Positions 1 to 56,858 of a DNA stretch of 64,000 nt are shown here, in pieces. Every line of letters starts with the position of its first letter. Position 1 is the stretch's first letter. Source of the stretch: Candidatus Parcubacteria bacterium. Lineage in GTDB: Bacteria > Patescibacteriota > Minisyncoccia > Phycocordibacterales > Phycocordibacteraceae. Made by a program: the position numbers and the translations under genes. The notes under the pieces were generated by a model. It worked only from the letters and a program-made list of their open reading frames with translations. It made no database searches and was not told where the DNA came from. The stretch is taken from assembly GCA_034666125.1 (NCBI GenBank), contig JAXDML010000002.1:4613-68612 (forward strand). Reading direction: 5' to 3'.

Positions 1-248
1 TGGTCGATCTTCCCGTCCGGGAGGATCTTGCTCCGGGAGAAATAGTCGATCGCGCCGAGGATGAGCAGACGGACCGTCGGAGAGTGCATATGCTCCTCAA
101 CGTAACGCTTCAGATCGGCGACGGTCCTGATACCCTCCGTCTCGATCCACAGCCTGCGGAGCAGGTCGTAGTCGGTCGAATAGAAATAGGTGTGAGGCAA
201 TCCGCGCGTTCCGCTCGGAAGCCAGTGGGACTGCATGCCCATAGAACG
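1..248 (-). CDS. Hypothetical protein, 5' part only; ATG at 248-246 and the gene continues past the window start
   Basis: Open minus-strand frame reaching the window edge (MGMQSHWLPSGTRGLPHTYFYSTDYDLLRRLWIETEGIRTVADLKRYVEEHMH...). Third-position GC is high like neighbouring genes. No family recognised. Confidence 0.35.
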
Positions 249-2662: not shown

Positions 2663-3424
2663 CACGAAGGCGAAGAATACCAGCGCGAGGAGGATGCGGT
2701 AGATACCGAACGGGATGAACGTGCGGGTCTTCACGAAATTCAGGAGGAAACGCAGCGAGAGCATGGCGACGACGAAGGCCGTCGCTATCCCGACCGCCAT
2801 GATACCGATGTCGCCCGTCTCGAATGTCGAGTAGGTTTTCAACAGGTCATACCCGGTCGCGGCGAGCATCGTCGGCACGGCGAGGAGGAACGAGAATTCC
2901 ACGATGGCGGCGCGGCGCATGCCGAGCAGGAGTCCGCCCACGATCGTCGCGCCCGAGCGAGATACGCCGGGAATGACCGCGATGGACTGGAAGAGGCCGA
3001 TGGTAAAGGCCTGGCGGTACGAGATGGCGCGCAGCGAGTCCGTTCCGTCAGCGCGCTCGGTATGGAAGTATTCGAATACGATGAGGAGGATGCCGCCTAC
3101 AAGAAGCGCGATGACGACCGTAAGCTCGCTGCCCAACAGGAATCCTTTGATCAGCTTATACAGGACGAAACCGATGATGGCCGTAGGAATAAAGGCCGTG
3201 AGAAGCCGCTTCAACACTTCGAGGTCGAGGAACGAGCGCCAGAAGGACACGATGACGGCGGCGATAGCACCGAGCTGGATGGCGATGAGGAAACTCGTCG
3301 TGAACGGGCTCTCGACGACGCCGAGAAGGTGCTGCGCGAGGATGAGATGCCCGGTCGAGGAGACGGGAAGGAATTCAGTCGCGCCTTCAAGGAGCCCGAG
3401 GAGGACGGCATCAAGAAAACCCAT
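2657..3424 (-). CDS. uppP: Undecaprenyl-diphosphatase (BacA/UppP)
   Basis: 255 aa polytopic membrane protein with N-terminal ...EFLPVSSTGHLIL... and the later GVSRSGATI motif characteristic of UppP. Confidence 0.85.
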   Translation of the reverse strand: MGFLDAVLLGLLEGATEFLPVSSTGHLILAQHLLGVVESPFTTSFLIAIQLGAIAAVIVSFWRSFLDLEVLKRLLTAFIPTAIIGFVLYKLIKGFLLGSELTVVIALLVGGILLIVFEYFHTERADGTDSLRAISYRQAFTIGLFQSIAVIPGVSRSGATIVGGLLLGMRRAAIVEFSFLLAVPTMLAATGYDLLKTYSTFETGDIGIMAVGIATAFVVAMLSLRFLLNFVKTRTFIPFGIYRILLALVFFAFVL

Positions 3425-10342: not shown

Positions 10343-10560
10343 AAGCTCAAAACTTAGCTGGCTAATAGACGCGAAGCATGATGATTCTATTTGACTATAA
10401 CTATATAGTGTACTACTATATTGCTGGTCTGTTTGTACCTTGGCAGATCGGGAGAATGAAGAAACGTCTAGGCGGACTGGAATCCGCCTGTGCGTGAGGC
10501 CCGGAAAACCTCCATATCTCAAGGCCACGGACGGCCAATCCACAAGGTAGGAGACGGTTC

Positions 10561-11217
10561 ATGTCCAAGATCGAAAACCTTGACCAATTTCTTGGCCTCG
10601 TCGAAGCAAAAGCAATTCCCGGACACCTGTGCGAAGCCTGGGGCGGCAAAGACCCGCGTCAGATCGCACTCAAAGCGAAGTCTGCGGGCTGGTTTCGTCG
10701 ACACCCAGTATTGATGGGTACGCTGGTCTTCGCATTTCTGATGGTCATCAGCTTCATGCCCTTTGTCATTGGGAGATCCGCTACCTCCATCCTCATAAAT
10801 TATTTTGGATGGTGGCTTGCCATGAGTGCCGTCCTCATCAGCATCGCCATGGCGCTGTGGCATACGAGTTCCGCAAAGGAAAACGCCTGGCTGAAGGTCG
10901 GACCCTTTGCCGAAACCTATGACCAGATGCTGGAAACCCTCGGCCTCACGGCCGCGGAATGTGCCGTCATGGAGGAGGAAGCCCTGCGTCTCCTCGCAGA
11001 GCGCGAAATGGTCGACGCATGCAAGGATGTCCTCGAATATCAGCGCAGGACGCATAAGCTTCCGCCGACCGATAAGAAGCTCGATCGTGAGAAAGAACTT
11101 CGTAAAAAGGTCGCGCAGACCTACGACGCTCTCATTCCGTTCGAGCTCGTCTCGGCCGACGGCTTCGGGCCTTATTACGAGATGGCGGCTAACGAGCTCT
11201 ACGGCGAAGCCGCCTGA
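10561..11217 (+). CDS. Hypothetical membrane protein (2-3 TM, C-terminal charged helical region)
   Basis: 218 aa with AGGAGA RBS. Preceded by a 220-bp low-GC leader carrying TTGACT-17-TACTAT promoter-like hexamers (about 10392-10420). Confidence 0.45.
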   Translation: MSKIENLDQFLGLVEAKAIPGHLCEAWGGKDPRQIALKAKSAGWFRRHPVLMGTLVFAFLMVISFMPFVIGRSATSILINYFGWWLAMSAVLISIAMALWHTSSAKENAWLKVGPFAETYDQMLETLGLTAAECAVMEEEALRLLAEREMVDACKDVLEYQRRTHKLPPTDKKLDREKELRKKVAQTYDALIPFELVSADGFGPYYEMAANELYGEAA

Positions 11218-27730: not shown

Positions 27731-28966
27731 ATGGAAGCATACGATGTAGTTATAATCGGAGCCGGTGTAGCCGGGCTTTCCTGCGCGAAGGCCCTTACTG
27801 AAGGAGGGAAGAGAGTCATCTTACTTGAAGCACAGGAATATATAGGAGGGCGTATCAAGACCGATCGTATGTACGATACCGTGGAAATCGGTGCCGAATT
27901 CGTGCATGGCGAGAACGCCACAACCTGGGAAATCATTCGGGCAGAAGGACTGACTGCCGAGCCCTGGTCATTCAAGGGAATGTCCGACTATCGGGTATAC
28001 GGCGAAGACGGTCGAATTCGCCCAGACAGCAAGGAAATGATGGCGGCCATGTATGCCGCTGAGGAAGATCTATGGGAGTGCGAAGACCCGGCCATATCGG
28101 TGAACGCTTATGTAAATGCCCAAGACGTGCCCGAAGAGATTCGCTTCTATGCGAAACGGCATATAGGGGACGTAGAGGCTGCGGACACCGAAGACTTGAG
28201 TGCGGCCAAACTTGCTGCAGCAAGTCGAAGGTCGACCAATGGTGAGGAGAATTTCCGCATACTCGACGGCTACGACCGTATCCCTGAGGCGCTCGCGCGC
28301 GGGTTGGAAGTGCGCGTTGGCCACCCAGTGACGCAAGTCAATTGGAAAAGAGGATCCGTTGAAGTGCTCTGTGCAAACGGTGCGACATTCGTGGCACCTC
28401 GCCTGGTCTTCACCGTCCCGCTGGGCGTCTTGAAGAAGGATCTGTTGAAGTTCTCACCCGCTCTTCCTTCATCATTCACTGGAGCGGTGTCTCGTATAGG
28501 GTTCGGTGATAATTGCAAGATCCTTCTTTGGGTCGATTCCGAAGTTCCAGAATTTCGTATGATCGATACCAGGGGTTGGTACGGTCATTTTTGGCAACAG
28601 AAGAAAAGGAACGAAACGATTATCACCGGTTATTGCGGTGGCTCTCGCGCAACGAAACTTACGAATATGGGCGAGGCTGCGGCGATAGAAGTAGGTATCG
28701 AAGATATCGCAAGTGCGCTCGGCGAAGATATCCGTGCTCATGTCAAACAAGCTCGGTTTTGCTCTTGGTCGGATAACCCCTACATTCTCGGATCATATAG
28801 CTATCCGAAGCTCGGCATGGGCAACGCACGCACGGAAATTCAAGAGCCGGTTGCGGATACGCTTTACTATTGCGGCGAAGCGTCGCACGATAAAGGGCAC
28901 GCTTCGACCGTACACGGGGCGATCGAAATGGGTCGGGCGACCGCAAAACAAATACTTTATGGATAA
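27731..28966 (+). CDS. Flavin-containing amine oxidase (polyamine/monoamine-oxidase family)
   Basis: N-terminal YDVVIIGAGVAGLSCA Rossmann, amino_oxidase-like length (411 aa), conserved C-terminal FAD-binding region (YYCGEASH..GHASTVHGAIEMG). Confidence 0.75.
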   Translation: MEAYDVVIIGAGVAGLSCAKALTEGGKRVILLEAQEYIGGRIKTDRMYDTVEIGAEFVHGENATTWEIIRAEGLTAEPWSFKGMSDYRVYGEDGRIRPDSKEMMAAMYAAEEDLWECEDPAISVNAYVNAQDVPEEIRFYAKRHIGDVEAADTEDLSAAKLAAASRRSTNGEENFRILDGYDRIPEALARGLEVRVGHPVTQVNWKRGSVEVLCANGATFVAPRLVFTVPLGVLKKDLLKFSPALPSSFTGAVSRIGFGDNCKILLWVDSEVPEFRMIDTRGWYGHFWQQKKRNETIITGYCGGSRATKLTNMGEAAAIEVGIEDIASALGEDIRAHVKQARFCSWSDNPYILGSYSYPKLGMGNARTEIQEPVADTLYYCGEASHDKGHASTVHGAIEMGRATAKQILYG

Positions 28967-29624
28967 AACTATTGAAAGGAGGGACCGCGCCGCCAAGCTC
29001 GTCGCGTACCTGAAGGACGCTTACCCGAAGCCGAAGACCGAGCTGCATTATGAAACCCCGTTCCAACTCGTTACCGCAGTCATGCTCTCCGCGCAGTGCA
29101 CGGATAAGAAGGTGAACGAGGTGACGGACGCGCTGCTGTTTAAGAAATATAAGACAGCGAATGATTTTGCGAATGCCGACCTCGATACTCTTATAAGCGA
29201 AACGCGCGGCATCACTTTTAATGCAGCGAAGGCGAAGAATCTCATCGCGGCCGCTACGCTTGTGCGGGACAACTTTGGGGGAGACGTACCGAAGACTCAG
29301 GAGGAGCTCATAACGCTCCCGGGAGTCGCGTACAAGACCGCGCATGTCGTGCTCGGTGAGCTGTATGACCTCTGGGAGGGCATCCCGACCGATACTCATG
29401 TGCGTCGTTTTTCGATCCGCTTCGACCTCACCGATAACACCGATCTTACGAAGATATCAAAGGACCTGGAGCAGCTCATCCCGAAGGCGGATTGGCGGTA
29501 CGTGAACAACGGCTTCGTCCTCTACGGCCGGTACGTTTGTCCGGCACGTCCGCACGAGTGCGACGACCATCCGCTCACGCTCCTATGGCCTCCCGCCGCG
29601 CATATCTGGCCGAAGGCGAAATAG
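28959..29624 (+). CDS. nth: Endonuclease III (Nth)
   Basis: HhH-GPD core (LITLPGVAYKTAHVVL) and C-terminal 4Fe-4S Cys ligands (CPARPHEC). Start at the ATG at 28959, overlapping the amine-oxidase stop by 8 nt. Confidence 0.85.
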   Translation: MDKTIERRDRAAKLVAYLKDAYPKPKTELHYETPFQLVTAVMLSAQCTDKKVNEVTDALLFKKYKTANDFANADLDTLISETRGITFNAAKAKNLIAAATLVRDNFGGDVPKTQEELITLPGVAYKTAHVVLGELYDLWEGIPTDTHVRRFSIRFDLTDNTDLTKISKDLEQLIPKADWRYVNNGFVLYGRYVCPARPHECDDHPLTLLWPPAAHIWPKAK

Positions 29625-29866
29625 CTTGACAGGCGGAAATCCTTCGGTTAGAGTCTCCTTAGGTCCGGTCTCCGAAGCAGTTGGCCCCGTGATGCTCCCT
29701 CCGGAGAATGGCAGCACGTGTGTCTGTGTGATGGCTGTGGCGCCTCGGCGTCTCTGGCTGACTAATCAGCATGCTTGTCATTGGGCTTTGAATCATTGAA
29801 GCCAATTACCACGAGGCCGGACCGCCTCACCCTAGTTCATTCGTTCGCTTTATATGTTCTCTCAAA

Positions 29867-29895
29867 ACAAGGCACCGGTGGTGCCTTTTTCGCTT
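29867..29895 (+). terminator. Intrinsic terminator closing the leader/sRNA candidate upstream of the HAD-PiT operon
   Basis: GGCACC-GGT-GGTGCC hairpin followed by TTTTTCGCTTTT. Confidence 0.55.
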
Positions 29896-29928
29896 TTATC
29901 TATTCGCGCAAGACGGTACCATTAACTA

Positions 29929-30621
29929 ATGGAAATGGAACGGCCGGTAGCAGTGTTCGATATCGACGGAACGGTCTTCCGCTCGTCGCTCCTGATCGAG
30001 CTCGTTGACCGCCTGGTGCTGCGCGGCGTCTTCCCCGAGGCCGCGCGTGTCTATTATGAGAAGGCGCGGGAGGAATGGCTCAACCGCGAGGGCGACTACG
30101 AGCCCTATATTAAAAAAGTTGTCCTGGCGTTCGCGAAGCACCTGAAAGGCATTCCGTTCGGCGACGTGGCCGATGTCGCGGGCGAGGCCATCGAGGAGAC
30201 GCGCTACCGAACGTACCGCTACACGCGCGACCTCATCCAGGAGCTTAAGGCCAAAGGCTACTTCCTCCTCGCGGTGTCGCATTCACCCAAGTTCATCGTG
30301 GACGGCTTCTGCTACGAACTCGGCTTCGATAAGTCGTACGGCTCGTTCTATGACACTGGCGCCTCCAACCGCTTCACCGGCGAGATAGTCGACGAGCATC
30401 TCATCATGAATAAGGCGGCGATACTGAAGCGTGCCGTCGAGAAGGAGAACCTTACGTTCAAAGACTCGGTCGGCGTGGGCGATACCGAGAGCGACGTCTC
30501 GATGCTTTCGCTCGTGGACGAGCCCATCGCTTTCAATCCGAACCGCGGCCTCTATCGCCACGCCAAGCAGCACCAGTGGAAGATCGTCGTGGAGCGGAAG
30601 GACGTGATTTACGAGATCTAA
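29929..30621 (+). CDS. HAD-superfamily phosphatase (subfamily IB-like)
   Basis: FDIDGTVF motif I and GVGDTESD motif IV; 230 aa. Confidence 0.65.
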   Translation: MEMERPVAVFDIDGTVFRSSLLIELVDRLVLRGVFPEAARVYYEKAREEWLNREGDYEPYIKKVVLAFAKHLKGIPFGDVADVAGEAIEETRYRTYRYTRDLIQELKAKGYFLLAVSHSPKFIVDGFCYELGFDKSYGSFYDTGASNRFTGEIVDEHLIMNKAAILKRAVEKENLTFKDSVGVGDTESDVSMLSLVDEPIAFNPNRGLYRHAKQHQWKIVVERKDVIYEI

Positions 30622-30727: not shown

Positions 30728-31768
30728 ATGGACTGGTCACAGCTTTCGCTCATTGCCGCATTGGTGCTTTTCCTCGTGCTTGCGGCCGAATGTTCGAACG
30801 GCTGGAGCGACGCGCCCGTCGGGACATCCGCGGCAGTCGCTTCGGGAGTGCTCACCAGCAGCCAGGCACTCCGTGTTACGGCTGTCGGAAATTTCCTGGG
30901 CGTGCTGGCGGGAGTCCTGCTCGGTGCAGCGGTCGCAAAGACGATCGGGACCGGCATCGTCAGGCCGGAGATGGTCTCGATCAGCTCGATCGGCATCGCC
31001 ATGGGCACTACCATCGCGTGGGCCGGAATTGCGCTCGTCCTCGGCCTTCCGGTGAGCAAGACGCATTCGCTCCTGGCAGCCCTTGCCGGAATCGGGTTCG
31101 CCCAGGGCGGGTTCGACGCACTGACCCCCGCAAGCGGCAACTGGCGCGACAGCGGCTGGGTAGCCGTGGGTATCGGCATGTTCCTTGCCATCGTGTGCGG
31201 GTCCGCCATAGCGTGGTTCGCCGCGAGCGTGGTGACGAAGCTCGGATGGCACGAAAAAGTCACCGACCAATGGTGGCGCCGCCTGCAGCTCTGCACTGTC
31301 TGGGGCGTATCTTCCGGGCATGGTTTCAACGACGGACTGAAATACGCCGGCATCTTCACGCTCGTGCTCTACAAGGCCGGCGCGATACCGGAGTTCCACG
31401 TCCTTCCGGAGGTCATCGCGCTATGCGCGGTGGTCATGGGCTTGGGAACGCTCCTGGGTGGCTGGAGGATCCATCAGCGACTGGACGGAATGGTCAACCA
31501 GCAAGAGCAAGCCGGTTCGCTCAAGAAGCCGTTCAGGCCGTATATGGGCGTCTGTGCCGAGAGCACCTCCGCTTTCTTCATCTGGCAGACCGGGTGGCTG
31601 GGCATTCCCATGAGTACCAACCACGGGGTCGTGTCCTCTATGGCGGGCGCCAAGTCGGCGGAGGGCAAGGTTCACACCTCTTCGATCATCAGGATCGTAT
31701 GGGGATGGGTCGTAACCTACGTGTTCTGCTTCATTATCGCGAACCTGCTCGCTGCGTCGATGCTCTGA
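30728..31768 (+). CDS. Inorganic phosphate transporter, PiT family
   Basis: Duplicated PiT signature regions (ECSNGWSDAPVGTSAAVASGVL in the N-half; GHGFNDGLKYAGIF in the C-half); about 10 TM. Confidence 0.75.
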   Translation: MDWSQLSLIAALVLFLVLAAECSNGWSDAPVGTSAAVASGVLTSSQALRVTAVGNFLGVLAGVLLGAAVAKTIGTGIVRPEMVSISSIGIAMGTTIAWAGIALVLGLPVSKTHSLLAALAGIGFAQGGFDALTPASGNWRDSGWVAVGIGMFLAIVCGSAIAWFAASVVTKLGWHEKVTDQWWRRLQLCTVWGVSSGHGFNDGLKYAGIFTLVLYKAGAIPEFHVLPEVIALCAVVMGLGTLLGGWRIHQRLDGMVNQQEQAGSLKKPFRPYMGVCAESTSAFFIWQTGWLGIPMSTNHGVVSSMAGAKSAEGKVHTSSIIRIVWGWVVTYVFCFIIANLLAASML

Positions 31769-31850
31769 CACACGCGGGCTCTGGGGGTCGTGGCGCATGC
31801 CGCGGCCCTCGTTTTTTGTAGCTGACTTGATAATTCGCTATACTAGCCGC

Positions 31851-32096
31851 ATGGAAAAGAAGCTCTATCGCAGCCGCGAGCATCGCGTCGTTTCGGGGGT
31901 GCTGGGAGGATTGGGGGAATATTTCACTATCGACCCCGTCATCGTGCGGCTTCTGTTCATCATCGTTACCCTCGCGACGGGATTCTTCCCGGGGCTCATC
32001 GCGTACGTCGTCGCGGTATATATCGTTCCCGAAGTGCCATTCATCGTTCATTCGGCTCCGATATCGGCAGAAGGGGATGACACTCCCGCAGTTTAG
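31851..32096 (+). CDS. PspC-domain protein
   Basis: MEKKLYRSREHRVVSGVLGGLGEYFTIDPVIVRLLFI matches the PspC domain. Start reassigned from 31797 to 31851. Confidence 0.6.
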   Translation: MEKKLYRSREHRVVSGVLGGLGEYFTIDPVIVRLLFIIVTLATGFFPGLIAYVVAVYIVPEVPFIVHSAPISAEGDDTPAV

Positions 32097-43963: not shown

Positions 43964-44110
43964 TACTTTTCCGATCAATACCCTGAAAATACGGGGCTCC
44001 AGCAGGCTACGCCTCCGGTTCCAAATCATTACGATATACTTGACATTCTGTCTATAACCTATATATAATATATCCAGTTTGAGAGTACCTTGCCAATAGA
44101 GGTATTTCTG

Positions 44111-44165
44111 GGCGGTTTCAGCCATAAGCGGCTTATATACTAGGCCTTTTACGGCTGAAACCGCC
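44111..44165. repeat. Perfect 13-bp inverted repeat (GGCGGTTTCAGCC ... GGCTGAAACCGCC) with a 29-nt AT-rich spacer
   Basis: Read directly from the sequence, inside the AT-rich 300-bp gap between htpX and the cassette at 44262. Confidence 0.5.
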
Positions 44166-44261
44166 AACCATTGATGGTGGACGGGCAGCTAGGGACCGAA
44201 GCAATCGCTAGGCTCCGACACAACCTCCACCATCCAAGCATCACCACGAAGGGAGAAGGAC

Positions 44262-45827
44262 ATGCGCTTTCCGTTCCTCGGTCGCAATCGCGACGAAGAA
44301 GAAATCGAAGATGATGAAACGATCGACGCCGGACCCGTTACGTTCGCTCAGAACAGCCTGGACCCCAGGGCGGTCGTCGGCGAGAATGCGATCGGCCAGC
44401 TCGAGGCCGCAAGCATGGCAGCGGGGCAGAGAAAGCCTCAGCCGCCTTGCGGCGATGCGGTCCGCGACCTGGTCGGCCTGACCAACGAAGTGGCGGCAGA
44501 CTATTACGACCTCAGCCGCCGGGCCCTCGACGATCTCGGCGCCCAGTTCAGGGCTATCCGCGATTCGTCCGAGCAGCCGATCGAGGGGACCAATGCCCCG
44601 AGGCTGGACCGGTTGCGTGAGAGCGCGACCGCCATCCTCAAGCAGCGGGCCGCACGGCAGGTCAAGGCCGCAAGCCGCATCAATGAGCTTGCGGCCAAGA
44701 TCCGCATCCTGACCATCGGGATCGTCGGGGACCCTGGCCGCGAGGTCAAGTCCCTGAGAGCGCTGCTCGCGCTGATCCTGATCCCGTTCGCCACGGTCGC
44801 CTTGATCCTGGAGTTCATGTTGAACTTCGACGTCGTCCGCTTTGCGAGCGATCGCATGGTGTCCACGGCGTTTTCGGTCGCGGTCTCGATCTTCGGGATC
44901 TTGTTCGCCCACCTCGCGGCCACGGGCTACCGGGTGTGGGCCACGAATCGCGACGCCAAGGCCGCGTTCCTCGACCGCTTCGGTCCGGGACGAATGGCGA
45001 TCGACCAGGAAACCGGCCAGCGCGTCAACGTCCTGCCGATCGATGCAAAGCAGCGGCGGTTGAGCACCATCGGCCACGTCGGGCTCTTCGCCCTCGTGAG
45101 CTCGGTGCTCCTCTTCCGTCTCTATGTCATCGGGACGCAGGACGACCCCAATCTGGGGTCGATCGCCGGCACCCTCGCGTTTGCGTTCACCGTGTTCGGG
45201 CTCTACGCATTCGAGCTCTCGATGCCGGGGATCGAACATCCCCGACTGAAGGAGCTCCTCAGCATGAAGGAGGAGATGAACGACCTCCAGGGCGAGATGA
45301 GCGACCTGGAAAGCGGGGCCGACGAGTTCCGCGAGGAGCTCGACGGTCTCGTCGCCGAATACCAGCGCGACGCCGAAGCCGGGGCCGACCAGTCCCGCGC
45401 GAAGGCCGAGCAGGGCAGAGCGATCCGGGACGATTTCCTGGCGCGCTACGCCGAGCTCCAGGGGGCCAACCCCTGGTTCCGCGATCTCGCGGGGCAGCAG
45501 CTCGACGTGTTCTTCAAGTGGGTCGGGATCTCGCATCCTGACCTGCGCGAAGATCCGGCCTACCAGCCGTCCCCGGAGAACATCCGGGCGATAGTGGAGG
45601 GCAACCTCCAGCTCGAGGACGTGCCGGACTATGCCGACATCGTGAACTATGAGCCCCAGGCGGCGGACTCGACGGCAGCGGCGGGCGTGAGCTCGCAATC
45701 GCTGTTCGACGAGATCTGGTCGTCGGTCATCGGCAGCGCCGAAGCGCGCGTCCGCAAACCGGATGCGCCCGTCGTCGCGGGAATTCCTCACCCGAGGATC
45801 CGTTTGGCCGGCGTCTCCCGCCGTTAG
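44262..45827 (+). CDS. Hypothetical 4-TM membrane protein with helical N-terminal domain and C-terminal coiled-coil region
   Basis: 521 aa, strong GGGAGAAGGA RBS. About 160 aa soluble N-terminus, four hydrophobic helices (about aa 165-325), then an acidic coiled-coil-like tail. Codon usage differs from neighbours (CTG, GGG and CCC are frequent). Confidence 0.5.
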   Translation: MRFPFLGRNRDEEEIEDDETIDAGPVTFAQNSLDPRAVVGENAIGQLEAASMAAGQRKPQPPCGDAVRDLVGLTNEVAADYYDLSRRALDDLGAQFRAIRDSSEQPIEGTNAPRLDRLRESATAILKQRAARQVKAASRINELAAKIRILTIGIVGDPGREVKSLRALLALILIPFATVALILEFMLNFDVVRFASDRMVSTAFSVAVSIFGILFAHLAATGYRVWATNRDAKAAFLDRFGPGRMAIDQETGQRVNVLPIDAKQRRLSTIGHVGLFALVSSVLLFRLYVIGTQDDPNLGSIAGTLAFAFTVFGLYAFELSMPGIEHPRLKELLSMKEEMNDLQGEMSDLESGADEFREELDGLVAEYQRDAEAGADQSRAKAEQGRAIRDDFLARYAELQGANPWFRDLAGQQLDVFFKWVGISHPDLREDPAYQPSPENIRAIVEGNLQLEDVPDYADIVNYEPQAADSTAAAGVSSQSLFDEIWSSVIGSAEARVRKPDAPVVAGIPHPRIRLAGVSRR

Positions 45828-56524: not shown

Positions 56525-56529
56525 ATCTC

Positions 56530-56858
56530 GTGAGACCGGTCCGATAAGCCGAATTCTGTCCCACCGAAGTGAGGACGGTCATCTATCTGGGGTACCTGTT
56601 ACCAGGCACCTCGAGCGGCGCTCCCTATCGCTAGGGCACGGCCTTGCTCCGGGGTAAGGATTTAGCCGTTTCAGCCTGAAATCGCTCTCAGGACGCTCTG
56701 CGGGAGAGCCCCTAGCCTTTCGGCATCGGGCGTTTCTGTTCGCACCTCGCGGATCGCTCCGGACGGGCGTTACCCGCTACCTTGCTGCCTCGTAAAGAGG
56801 CCGGAGTTCGGACTTTCCTCTGGCTTGTGCCAGCGACCGTCTGGGCCGGTCTGGGAGG
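56530..56858 (-). ncRNA. rnpB: RNase P RNA (type A), rnpB
   Basis: Minus-strand transcript contains GAGGAAAGUCCGAACUCC (P4 5' strand), GGUAACGCC, CCCGGAGCAAGGCC and 3' ACAGAAUUCGGCUUAUCGGACCGGUCUC. These align collinearly with E. coli M1 RNA (GAGGAAAGUCCGGGCUCC ... CAGGUAACGCC ... CCCGGAGCAAGGCC ... ACAGAACCCGGCUUAUCGG). P1 pairing is AGACCGG/CCGGUCU. The region is about 330 nt and free of ORFs. Confidence 0.8.

Follow-up and report, generated by a model that had tools for sequence, protein, structure and literature searches.

What is encoded by a ~270-bp stretch of DNA that begins with a promoter, ends with a transcription terminator and lies between two protein-coding genes of a Candidatus Parcubacteria bacterium? 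The stretch occupies positions 29626-29895 of the window, by which we mean the whole 64,000-nucleotide (nt) piece of DNA that was analysed (NCBI GenBank assembly GCA_034666125.1, contig JAXDML010000002.1, positions 4,613 to 68,612 of the forward strand). An original prediction, made from the sequence alone, had read it as a riboswitch-like attenuator of the operon downstream or as an independent small RNA (sRNA). The genomes of bacteria of the candidate phyla radiation (CPR) are tiny (roughly 0.6-1 Mb) and leave little DNA to spare, and to our knowledge the non-coding RNA biology of these bacteria is almost unexplored. We conclude that 29626-29895 is probably a self-contained gene for a ~235-nt structured, trans-acting sRNA of a new family in the Paceibacteria, a CPR lineage. 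Support for an independent sRNA comes from a conserved, self-contained transcription unit and a covarying closing helix. The RNA is non-coding. The family was undescribed before, and it is an ordinary kind of object, a bacterial sRNA gene, in a lineage with almost none known. The family is restricted to a clade of Paceibacteria, about half of which has kept the module, and Rfam 15 does not contain it.

A conserved transcription unit with its own promoter and terminator

The RNA gene is headed by a sigma-70-type promoter at 29626-29654 on the plus strand, in which the -35 hexamer TTGACA (29626-29631) is separated by a 17-nt spacer from the -10 hexamer TAGAGT (29649-29654). This near-consensus promoter lies where the original prediction had placed it and scored 10/12 in a consensus scan, which returned 2 promoter-like sites in a 1.5-kb region against 0.7 expected. 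Sites of the form TTGACN-16..18-TAnnnT numbered 6 in the whole window, both strands included, compared with 2.2 in shuffles. Judged from the spacing, transcription would start at 29661 (+), the A of 'AG|GUCC', 7 nt past the -10 hexamer. At the far end, an intrinsic terminator spans 29869-29895 (+). Its DNA stem reads AAGGCACC-GGT-GGTGCCTT at 29869-29887 and is followed by a T-run, so that the transcript carries an 8-bp stem, AAGGCACC/GGUGCCUU, with a GGU loop and a U-tract. The strong terminator that had been noticed ahead of the gene at 29929 was thereby confirmed, and it is the sole terminator-like site within 29000-30500.

We compared the locus with 51 loci from species-representative genomes, 58 metagenome loci and 11 further loci (L110-L120; all loci are designated by L numbers) that were obtained by exact-protein look-up of the closest homologues of the downstream HAD protein, six of them near-identical. 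By the homologues of this protein, the window belongs to the Kaiserbacteria-like Parcubacteria (Candidatus Paceibacterota). The module, made up of promoter, a helix between a 5′ arm and a 3′ arm, linker and terminator, was found in ~30 distinct related genomes, mostly 3′ of nth. The module is thus conserved in relatives and contains a covarying helix; absence of such conservation had been named beforehand as an outcome that would speak against a structured RNA. All of the ~30 members have a promoter TTGnnn-16/17-TAnnnT and a terminator. The spacing between promoter and 5′ arm is constant in nearly all of them, the transcripts begin with 'CAG|GUCC' or similar and the terminators are strong. Directly 5′ of the 5′ arm, 'CAG/UAG' is conserved in the relatives.

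When full transcripts were folded, the terminator stem had a pair probability of 0.96 in the window RNA and of at least 0.88 in 23 of the 28 full-length members. No antiterminator or other pairing that competes with the terminator was found in the folds of these 28 transcripts, in which the terminator is constitutive as far as the folding model predicts.

A closing helix that covaries across the family

The two ends of the RNA body are joined by a long-range helix, P1. In the window, GGTCCGGTCTC (29662-29672) pairs perfectly with GAGGCCGGACC (29813-29823) over 11 bp, one of them G·U; the 5′ arm reads GGUCCGGUCUC in the RNA, and both arms lie on the plus strand. P1 belongs to the minimum-free-energy (MFE) fold of the window RNA, which bears out the 11-nt pairing proposed earlier, and weaker pairing beyond it extends inward to ~29695. 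Across the family the pairing mostly runs on inward, with bulges, to 20-30 bp, and in 20 of 26 members the closing helix is contiguous over 9-14 bp, its arms lying 145-212 nt from each other. The duplex energy of the first 40 nt with the rest of the transcript, compared with dinucleotide shuffles, gave a mean z of -1.34 over 30 members, with p<=0.05 in 11. Of the window's helices that reach 10 bp or more and have a G-rich 5′ arm, P1 alone has a promoter just upstream and a terminator just downstream.

Alignment of the relatives for covariation had been suggested as a way to check the pairing. We scored an ungapped, homology-anchored alignment of both arms from 20 members (A2), in which every one of the 12 pairs was affected by double-sided changes (57 cells). 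The covariation score was 0.723 compared with 0.233 in shuffles, none of 500 shuffles reached 0.723, and sliding the partner arm gave at most 0.155. Standard pairs made up 89.6% of the cells, a percentage that is inflated because the 3′ arms were located by complementarity. Location by complementarity does not explain the diversity of arm sequences with matching partners. Over the outer nine positions of P1, G·U exceeded A·C by 23:1, which argues for selection on the plus-strand RNA and not on a DNA palindrome. The arms have the consensus GGUCCUGG/CCAGGACC, so that the terminal stem is constrained family-wide in sequence also.

A variable interior, a pyrimidine-rich tail and no conserved reading frame

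The interior enclosed by P1 (29673-29812, +) consists of the inner extension of the closing stem and ~5 short hairpins, and its sequence is not conserved. Hairpins of the MFE fold include CUCC-CUCC-GGAG, GGCGC-CUCG-GCGUC and GCUGA-CUAA-UCAGC (29757-29770), the last of which had already been spotted by eye. The nearest RNA-bearing relative, L111, has a HAD protein 88% identical to that of the window. The two RNA genes share the promoter, the first ~15 nt, a hairpin CCUCYC...GGAGRAUG, the 3′ arm and a tail motif, UUCAUUCGUUC; the remaining ~120 nt of the window RNA could not be aligned with L111. Interior length ranges from 60 to 220 nt across the family. Most members nevertheless fold into 4-6 hairpins by MFE, many with GNRA or UNCG-type loops, and in the alignable subgroup(s) local hairpins show compensatory changes, with five local hairpins in the subgroup consensus. 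When whole subgroups were aligned with MAFFT and RNAalifold, the ends and a few hairpins aligned and the interiors did so poorly. Conserved ends around a freely varying interior are an unusual pattern, and it suggests that function resides in the terminal stem.

Between P1 and the terminator lies a pyrimidine-rich, G-poor single-stranded tail, GCCUCACCCUAGUUCAUUCGUUCGC... (29824-29868, +), which is conserved in part with L111 through UUCAUUCGUUC. In the family the tails measure 0-45 nt and are 70% pyrimidine and 11% G, without GGAG or GAGG.

The RNA contains no conserved open reading frame (ORF). The longest ATG ORF averaged 18.2 amino acids in the members and 18.3 amino acids in shuffled sequences, seven members lack any ATG ORF, and the ORFs elsewhere are not homologous. 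An apparent L-S-P-E frame around the motif CUCYCNCCGGAG had raised the idea of a small ORF; no consistent ORF was found, and we rejected the idea because the motif forms a hairpin that carries a compensatory change from C-G to U-A.

Distribution, copies and loss in relatives

The module was present in 19 of 50 species-representative genomes, all of which, with one exception, encode a HAD protein at least 63% identical to that of the window. The exception is L048, from a more distant Kaiserbacteria genome with a HAD protein 55% identical. Here the module (1760-2020) directly follows nth, and after the RNA comes a gene for a trypsin-like protease, preceded by a TATAAA + 6 nt + ATG box of its own; HAD is found 1 kb beyond. 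In L006, L013, L016 and L062 the upstream gene is other than the usual one, and the RNA still adjoins HAD in the same orientation. Searching the 51 related loci with the window RNA by blastn gave no match, as the family is too divergent for sequence search, and an nhmmer profile of the 5′ block was too weak (best E = 0.03).

Close relatives can lack the RNA. In L112 the gap between nth and HAD is 19 nt, and in L110 it is filled by another HAD gene. In L025 (~2950-3000; also L074) only 'GCACTTTTTCCTTTCCCC' is left between nth and HAD, and this is the distal half of the terminator with the T-tract seen in the RNA-bearing loci L004 and L010. This remnant indicates that the RNA gene was lost there by deletion from an RNA-bearing ancestor. 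We infer from these sequences that the gene is ancestral to the clade and was repeatedly deleted. At L044 (1520-1880), which has the same sequence as L070, two different short versions of the RNA stand in tandem between nth and HAD, each with a terminator. The arms of these short versions are ~68 and ~52 nt apart, and single copies occur in L024 and L022.

We looked for further copies with a strict pattern (promoter + AGGUCC) and with a custom scan for promoter, helix and terminator. Beyond the syntenic sites and L048, neither the window nor 643 kb of related loci yielded a second copy, and the locus showed no similarity to phage or plasmid collections. These searches bear on whether the locus could be a DNA-level element or a by-product, that is, a miniature inverted-repeat mobile element, a protein-binding palindrome, or the 3′ untranslated region of nth with its terminator. 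The ends are indeed inverted repeats around a variable interior, presence differs between close relatives, and the tandem short versions of L044/L070 would suit a mobile element. Moreover, the nth stop codon abuts the RNA promoter, so that nth transcripts must also end at the RNA terminator. However, strand symmetry would be expected of a DNA palindrome or of the inverted repeat of a transposon, and the 23:1 excess of G·U over A·C, a mark of strand-specific selection on RNA, excludes such an element. The locus is also single-copy, its own near-consensus promoter is conserved in every member, and the empty sites look like deletions with terminator remnants (L025) rather than precise excisions. 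We regard a DNA-level explanation as extremely unlikely.

The downstream HAD gene and the attenuation model

The RNA gene is flanked by protein genes on the same strand. Upstream, the 3′ part of nth (endonuclease III, HhH-GPD; 28959-29624, +; Pfam HhH-GPD, E = 8.6e-14) has its stop 1 nt before the -35 hexamer. Downstream, the HAD-IB hydrolase gene (29929-30621, +; Pfam PF12710, E = 6e-19) begins 33 nt after the end of the terminator, and genes for a PHO4/PiT transporter (30728-31765) and PspC (31797-32093) follow, as had been described.

HAD is preceded by a leaderless promoter (29917-29931, +), in which the -10 hexamer TACCAT (29917-29922) stands 6 nt before the ATG at 29929. An in-frame TAnnnT-N5-7-start arrangement was found in 74 of 84 distinct HAD loci, with a spacing of exactly 6 nt in 64 and with TACCAT in 41. 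It is kept with or without the RNA, including at loci where nth abuts HAD. There is no Shine-Dalgarno sequence 5′ of the HAD ATG, and an RNA read through from upstream would therefore be poorly translated. Separate transcription of HAD from its own leaderless promoter is directly supported by this sequence arrangement. The arrangement seems not to be peculiar to HAD. In the window, TAnnnT stands 5-7 nt (mostly 6) before the start in 10 of 49 crude gene starts, where ~2 were expected, and Shine-Dalgarno-like motifs are rare (4 of 49); examples of leaderless starts are 4235, 11520, 12562, 16513, 23641, 24422, 26560, 27731, 29929 and 62931. Leaderless mRNAs thus appear to be common in this Paceibacteria genome, and their frequency affects the reading of any "leader RNA" in the lineage.

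If the RNA were instead a cis-acting 5′ leader of a HAD(-PiT-PspC) operon, a ligand or protein would set the balance between termination and read-through at 29869-29895. The layout is right for such an attenuator, with promoter, structured RNA, terminator and a same-strand gene 33 nt on, and, with few exceptions among the members, the RNA adjoins a co-oriented HAD; this is so also where another gene lies upstream (L006, L013, L016, L062). The RNA has, however, no conserved interior core; its interior varies from 60 to 220 nt, and the window RNA cannot be aligned with that of L111 except at the ends. Neither an antiterminator nor a match to an Rfam riboswitch was found, and in 23 of 28 members the terminator has a pair probability of 0.88 or more. 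HAD keeps TAnnnT + 6 nt + ATG, without a Shine-Dalgarno sequence, in RNA-bearing and RNA-less genomes alike, and in L048 the gene after the RNA is that of the protease. We consider attenuation very unlikely, and on present evidence HAD is a neighbour of the RNA, not a gene under its control.

The same holds for the idea that the leader senses a phosphate-related metabolite, an attractive lead but in our judgement a wrong one. PiT is next to HAD in the window only; in syntenic relatives its place is taken by PemK, an MFS transporter or PspC. In the window, PiT has its own ribosome-binding site, GGGAGGG, after a gap of 106 nt.

On the other side of nth, a flavin amine-oxidase gene (27731-28963) has a G+C fraction of 0.48-0.56, below that of its neighbours. 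This gene and PiT are missing from the otherwise syntenic loci L110-L119, where HAD is next to a PemK toxin or MFS gene. The surroundings of nth and HAD seem to be a hot spot of gene gain and loss.

Known RNA families and divergent housekeeping RNAs

At the gathering score, Rfam 15 gave nothing at the locus in the window or in 20 loci. With the threshold relaxed to E <= 10, nothing relevant was found in the window RNA, ten other members and L048; there were only chance matches of terminator type. That no known riboswitch class could be recognised by eye is thus borne out by the Rfam scan, which gave no relevant family match at either threshold. ARAGORN found only two tRNAs in the window and no transfer-messenger RNA (tmRNA), for which there was no Rfam match either. 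Full-text searches of the literature on sRNAs or 6S RNA in Patescibacteria/Parcubacteria returned nothing relevant.

A housekeeping RNA, be it 6S RNA, signal recognition particle (SRP) RNA, Y RNA or tmRNA, might have diverged in CPR so far that the Rfam models miss it. The strong promoter would fit, and a size of 160-235 nt together with a closing stem made by the two ends matches 6S RNA. The GGUCC box recalls the Ro-binding GGUCCGA of Y RNA and the closing stem of 6S-1 of B. subtilis, and AGGUCCGG...GAAGCAG in the window RNA recalls helix 8 of SRP RNA. Yet no 6S, SRP, Y/YrlA or tmRNA model matched any of the 12 members at E <= 10, and ARAGORN was negative. The interior is predicted to fold into 4-6 local hairpins rather than a rod with a central bubble, the gene is missing from the locus in close relatives, which would be unexpected for SRP RNA, and no TROVE/Rsr gene lies within ~4 kb. 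A divergent housekeeping RNA is, in our estimate, quite unlikely.

The resemblance to SRP helix 8, which the original prediction had itself called weak, does not hold. GAAGCAG is part of the closing stem, on its 5′ side, instead of occupying the apex of a hairpin, it is absent from L111 and most other members, and neither RF00169 nor RF01854 matched. We therefore rejected SRP RNA. The suggestion of a 6S-like closed long helix fared better in part: the size and the closing stem agree with it, whereas the lack of a match to RF00013 and the predicted multi-hairpin interior do not.

Base pairing through C/U-rich segments

The main alternative is that the RNA is a base-pairing regulator. Its C/U-rich unpaired segments, the tail CCUCACCC and the CUCCCUCC hairpin, would occlude purine-rich ribosome-binding sites, as in RsaE/RoxS, RNAIII and the betaproteobacterial toxic sRNA. 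The composition of the tails, pyrimidine-rich and free of GGAG and GAGG, would suit this role. Motifs of the CCUC/CCUCA type occur in the window RNA, L048, L006, L029, L021 and others, and the window RNA and L111 have the tail motif UUCAUUCGUUC in common while their interiors differ. The ribosome-binding site of PiT, GGGAGGG, is complementary to UCCCUCC in the RNA. The only Rfam near-match was to the terminator-proximal part of the toxic sRNA model, and it was not significant (E = 8.7). Against base pairing, six members have tails of just 0-7 nt, and only 5 of 29 tails contain CCUC, for which reason we rejected an anti-Shine-Dalgarno tail as a universal seed. Shine-Dalgarno-like sequences, the presumed targets, are rare in the window. 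The complement of the tail is not enriched there, with 14 matches compared with 16.4 expected, and the tails show no preference for their cognate HAD 5′ region (on average -18.45 kcal/mol for cognate and -19.06 kcal/mol for non-cognate pairs). We judge base pairing as the mode of action to be unlikely.

Other candidate RNAs in the window

Two other non-coding stretches of the window may be leader RNAs. At 44040-44265 (+), a non-coding stretch of ~190 nt with a long hairpin, GGGCGGTTTCAGCC...GGCTGAAACCGCC, comes after a near-consensus promoter, TTGACA-N18-TATAAT (44040-44069). The stretch precedes an ATG at 44262/44263 (521-amino-acid ORF) with a GGGAGAAGGA ribosome-binding site. It is a candidate structured 5′ leader or cis-regulator and has no Rfam match at the gathering score. 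At 10391-10563 (+), a promoter TTGACT...TACTAT and a ~135-nt leader with a GGCGGACTGGAATCCGCC hairpin lie before an ATG at 10561 with a GGTAGGAGA ribosome-binding site; this possible leader RNA had no Rfam match. The window also contains an RNase P RNA gene (class A; 56529-56852, -), which scored only 132 bits where the gathering score is 100. Compared with the model it shows large deletions, as is typical of the reduced RNase P RNAs of CPR bacteria.

Discussion

A near-consensus promoter, a covarying helix, an own terminator, retention in relatives and absence from Rfam together make the locus a good candidate for a new functional RNA class. In the trans-acting sRNA that we favour, the sigma-70 promoter would start the transcript ~1 nt before the conserved 'GGUCC' box. 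The 5′ end pairs with a segment 145-212 nt downstream to form a long imperfect closing stem that encloses short hairpins, and a pyrimidine-rich linker and the constitutive terminator would end the transcript. The product would be a stable RNA that may act in trans. Its GGUCC/GGACC stem would be the selected feature, bringing together and protecting both ends, and is most plausibly a protein-recognition or scaffold element like the terminal stems of Y RNA or 6S RNA. The interior would be a folded spacer that must only stay folded and could otherwise evolve almost freely. That only the terminal stem is constrained, its sequence included, favours recognition of the stem by a protein; by analogy, protein binding or scaffolding is our leading guess for the role of the RNA. 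A bolder version, which we put forward tentatively and hold to be improbable, would make the RNA the first representative of a class of stable ribonucleoprotein RNAs that is specific to CPR and functionally analogous to 6S/Ms1 or Y RNA. The putative protein that would bind its GGUCC/GGACC stem might be RNA polymerase, an RNase or a factor of quality control, for example, and the interior would again be a fast-evolving spacer.

Several points weigh against a trans-acting structured sRNA. Both the start and the 3′ end of the transcript are predicted from the sequence. The folding energy of the single window RNA is ordinary (z = -0.26 compared with dinucleotide shuffles), so that the window sequence alone proves no structured RNA and the proof comes from the relatives, where the percentage of paired cells in A2 is inflated in the way described above. 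The patchy presence of the gene means that its function is dispensable. No partner protein or target was identified, the tails show no co-evolution with the HAD 5′ region, and the tail complement is not enriched in the window. Finally, the RNA is always co-oriented with and directly 5′ of a leaderless gene, which is HAD in ~30 cases with three upstream contexts. This constant co-orientation makes some cis effect possible. A purely cis role, in which the RNA gene would insulate the HAD promoter from nth read-through or act by promoter interference, is possible but minor.

How does the RNA compare with known systems? Attenuation riboswitches have the same linear order of promoter, structured RNA, intrinsic terminator and same-strand gene. 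They differ in that the RNA described here has neither a conserved core nor an antiterminator, and the next gene has its own predicted leaderless promoter. Anti-Shine-Dalgarno sRNAs (RsaE/RoxS, the RNAIII hairpins, RF02278) are likewise encoded by independent genes with terminators and resemble our RNA in the C/U-rich, G-free segments CCUCACCC and CUCCCUCC. Compared with them the RNA is of far greater size, a long-range stem encloses it, its C-rich motifs are not universal, and the genome offers few Shine-Dalgarno sites.

6S RNA (ssrS; RF00013) and the actinobacterial 6S-like Ms1 share with it a stand-alone gene, a strong promoter, a length of 160-235 nt and a long imperfect closing stem. As in 6S/Ms1, the RNA sequence is poorly conserved while the stem covaries, and the gene is dispensable. 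Unlike these RNAs, ours is predicted to contain several short hairpins instead of a central bubble with a terminal stem, it has no RF00013 score at E <= 10, and its stem is followed by a pyrimidine-rich linker and an encoded terminator. From the Y RNAs (Y_RNA, YrlA) it differs in that the helix is fully paired without a conserved bulge, there is no tRNA-like module and no Rfam match, and no rsr/TROVE gene is nearby, the neighbours being nth, HAD, PHO4, PspC, HhH-GPD, MFS, VKOR and DUF8173. In common with the Y RNAs, it has a terminal stem that is formed by the two ends and is the only strongly conserved part, a variable interior and a pyrimidine-rich stretch, and its 5′ strand carries a GGUCC-type box that we take to be comparable to the 5′ ends of human Y RNAs, GGCUGGUCCGA....

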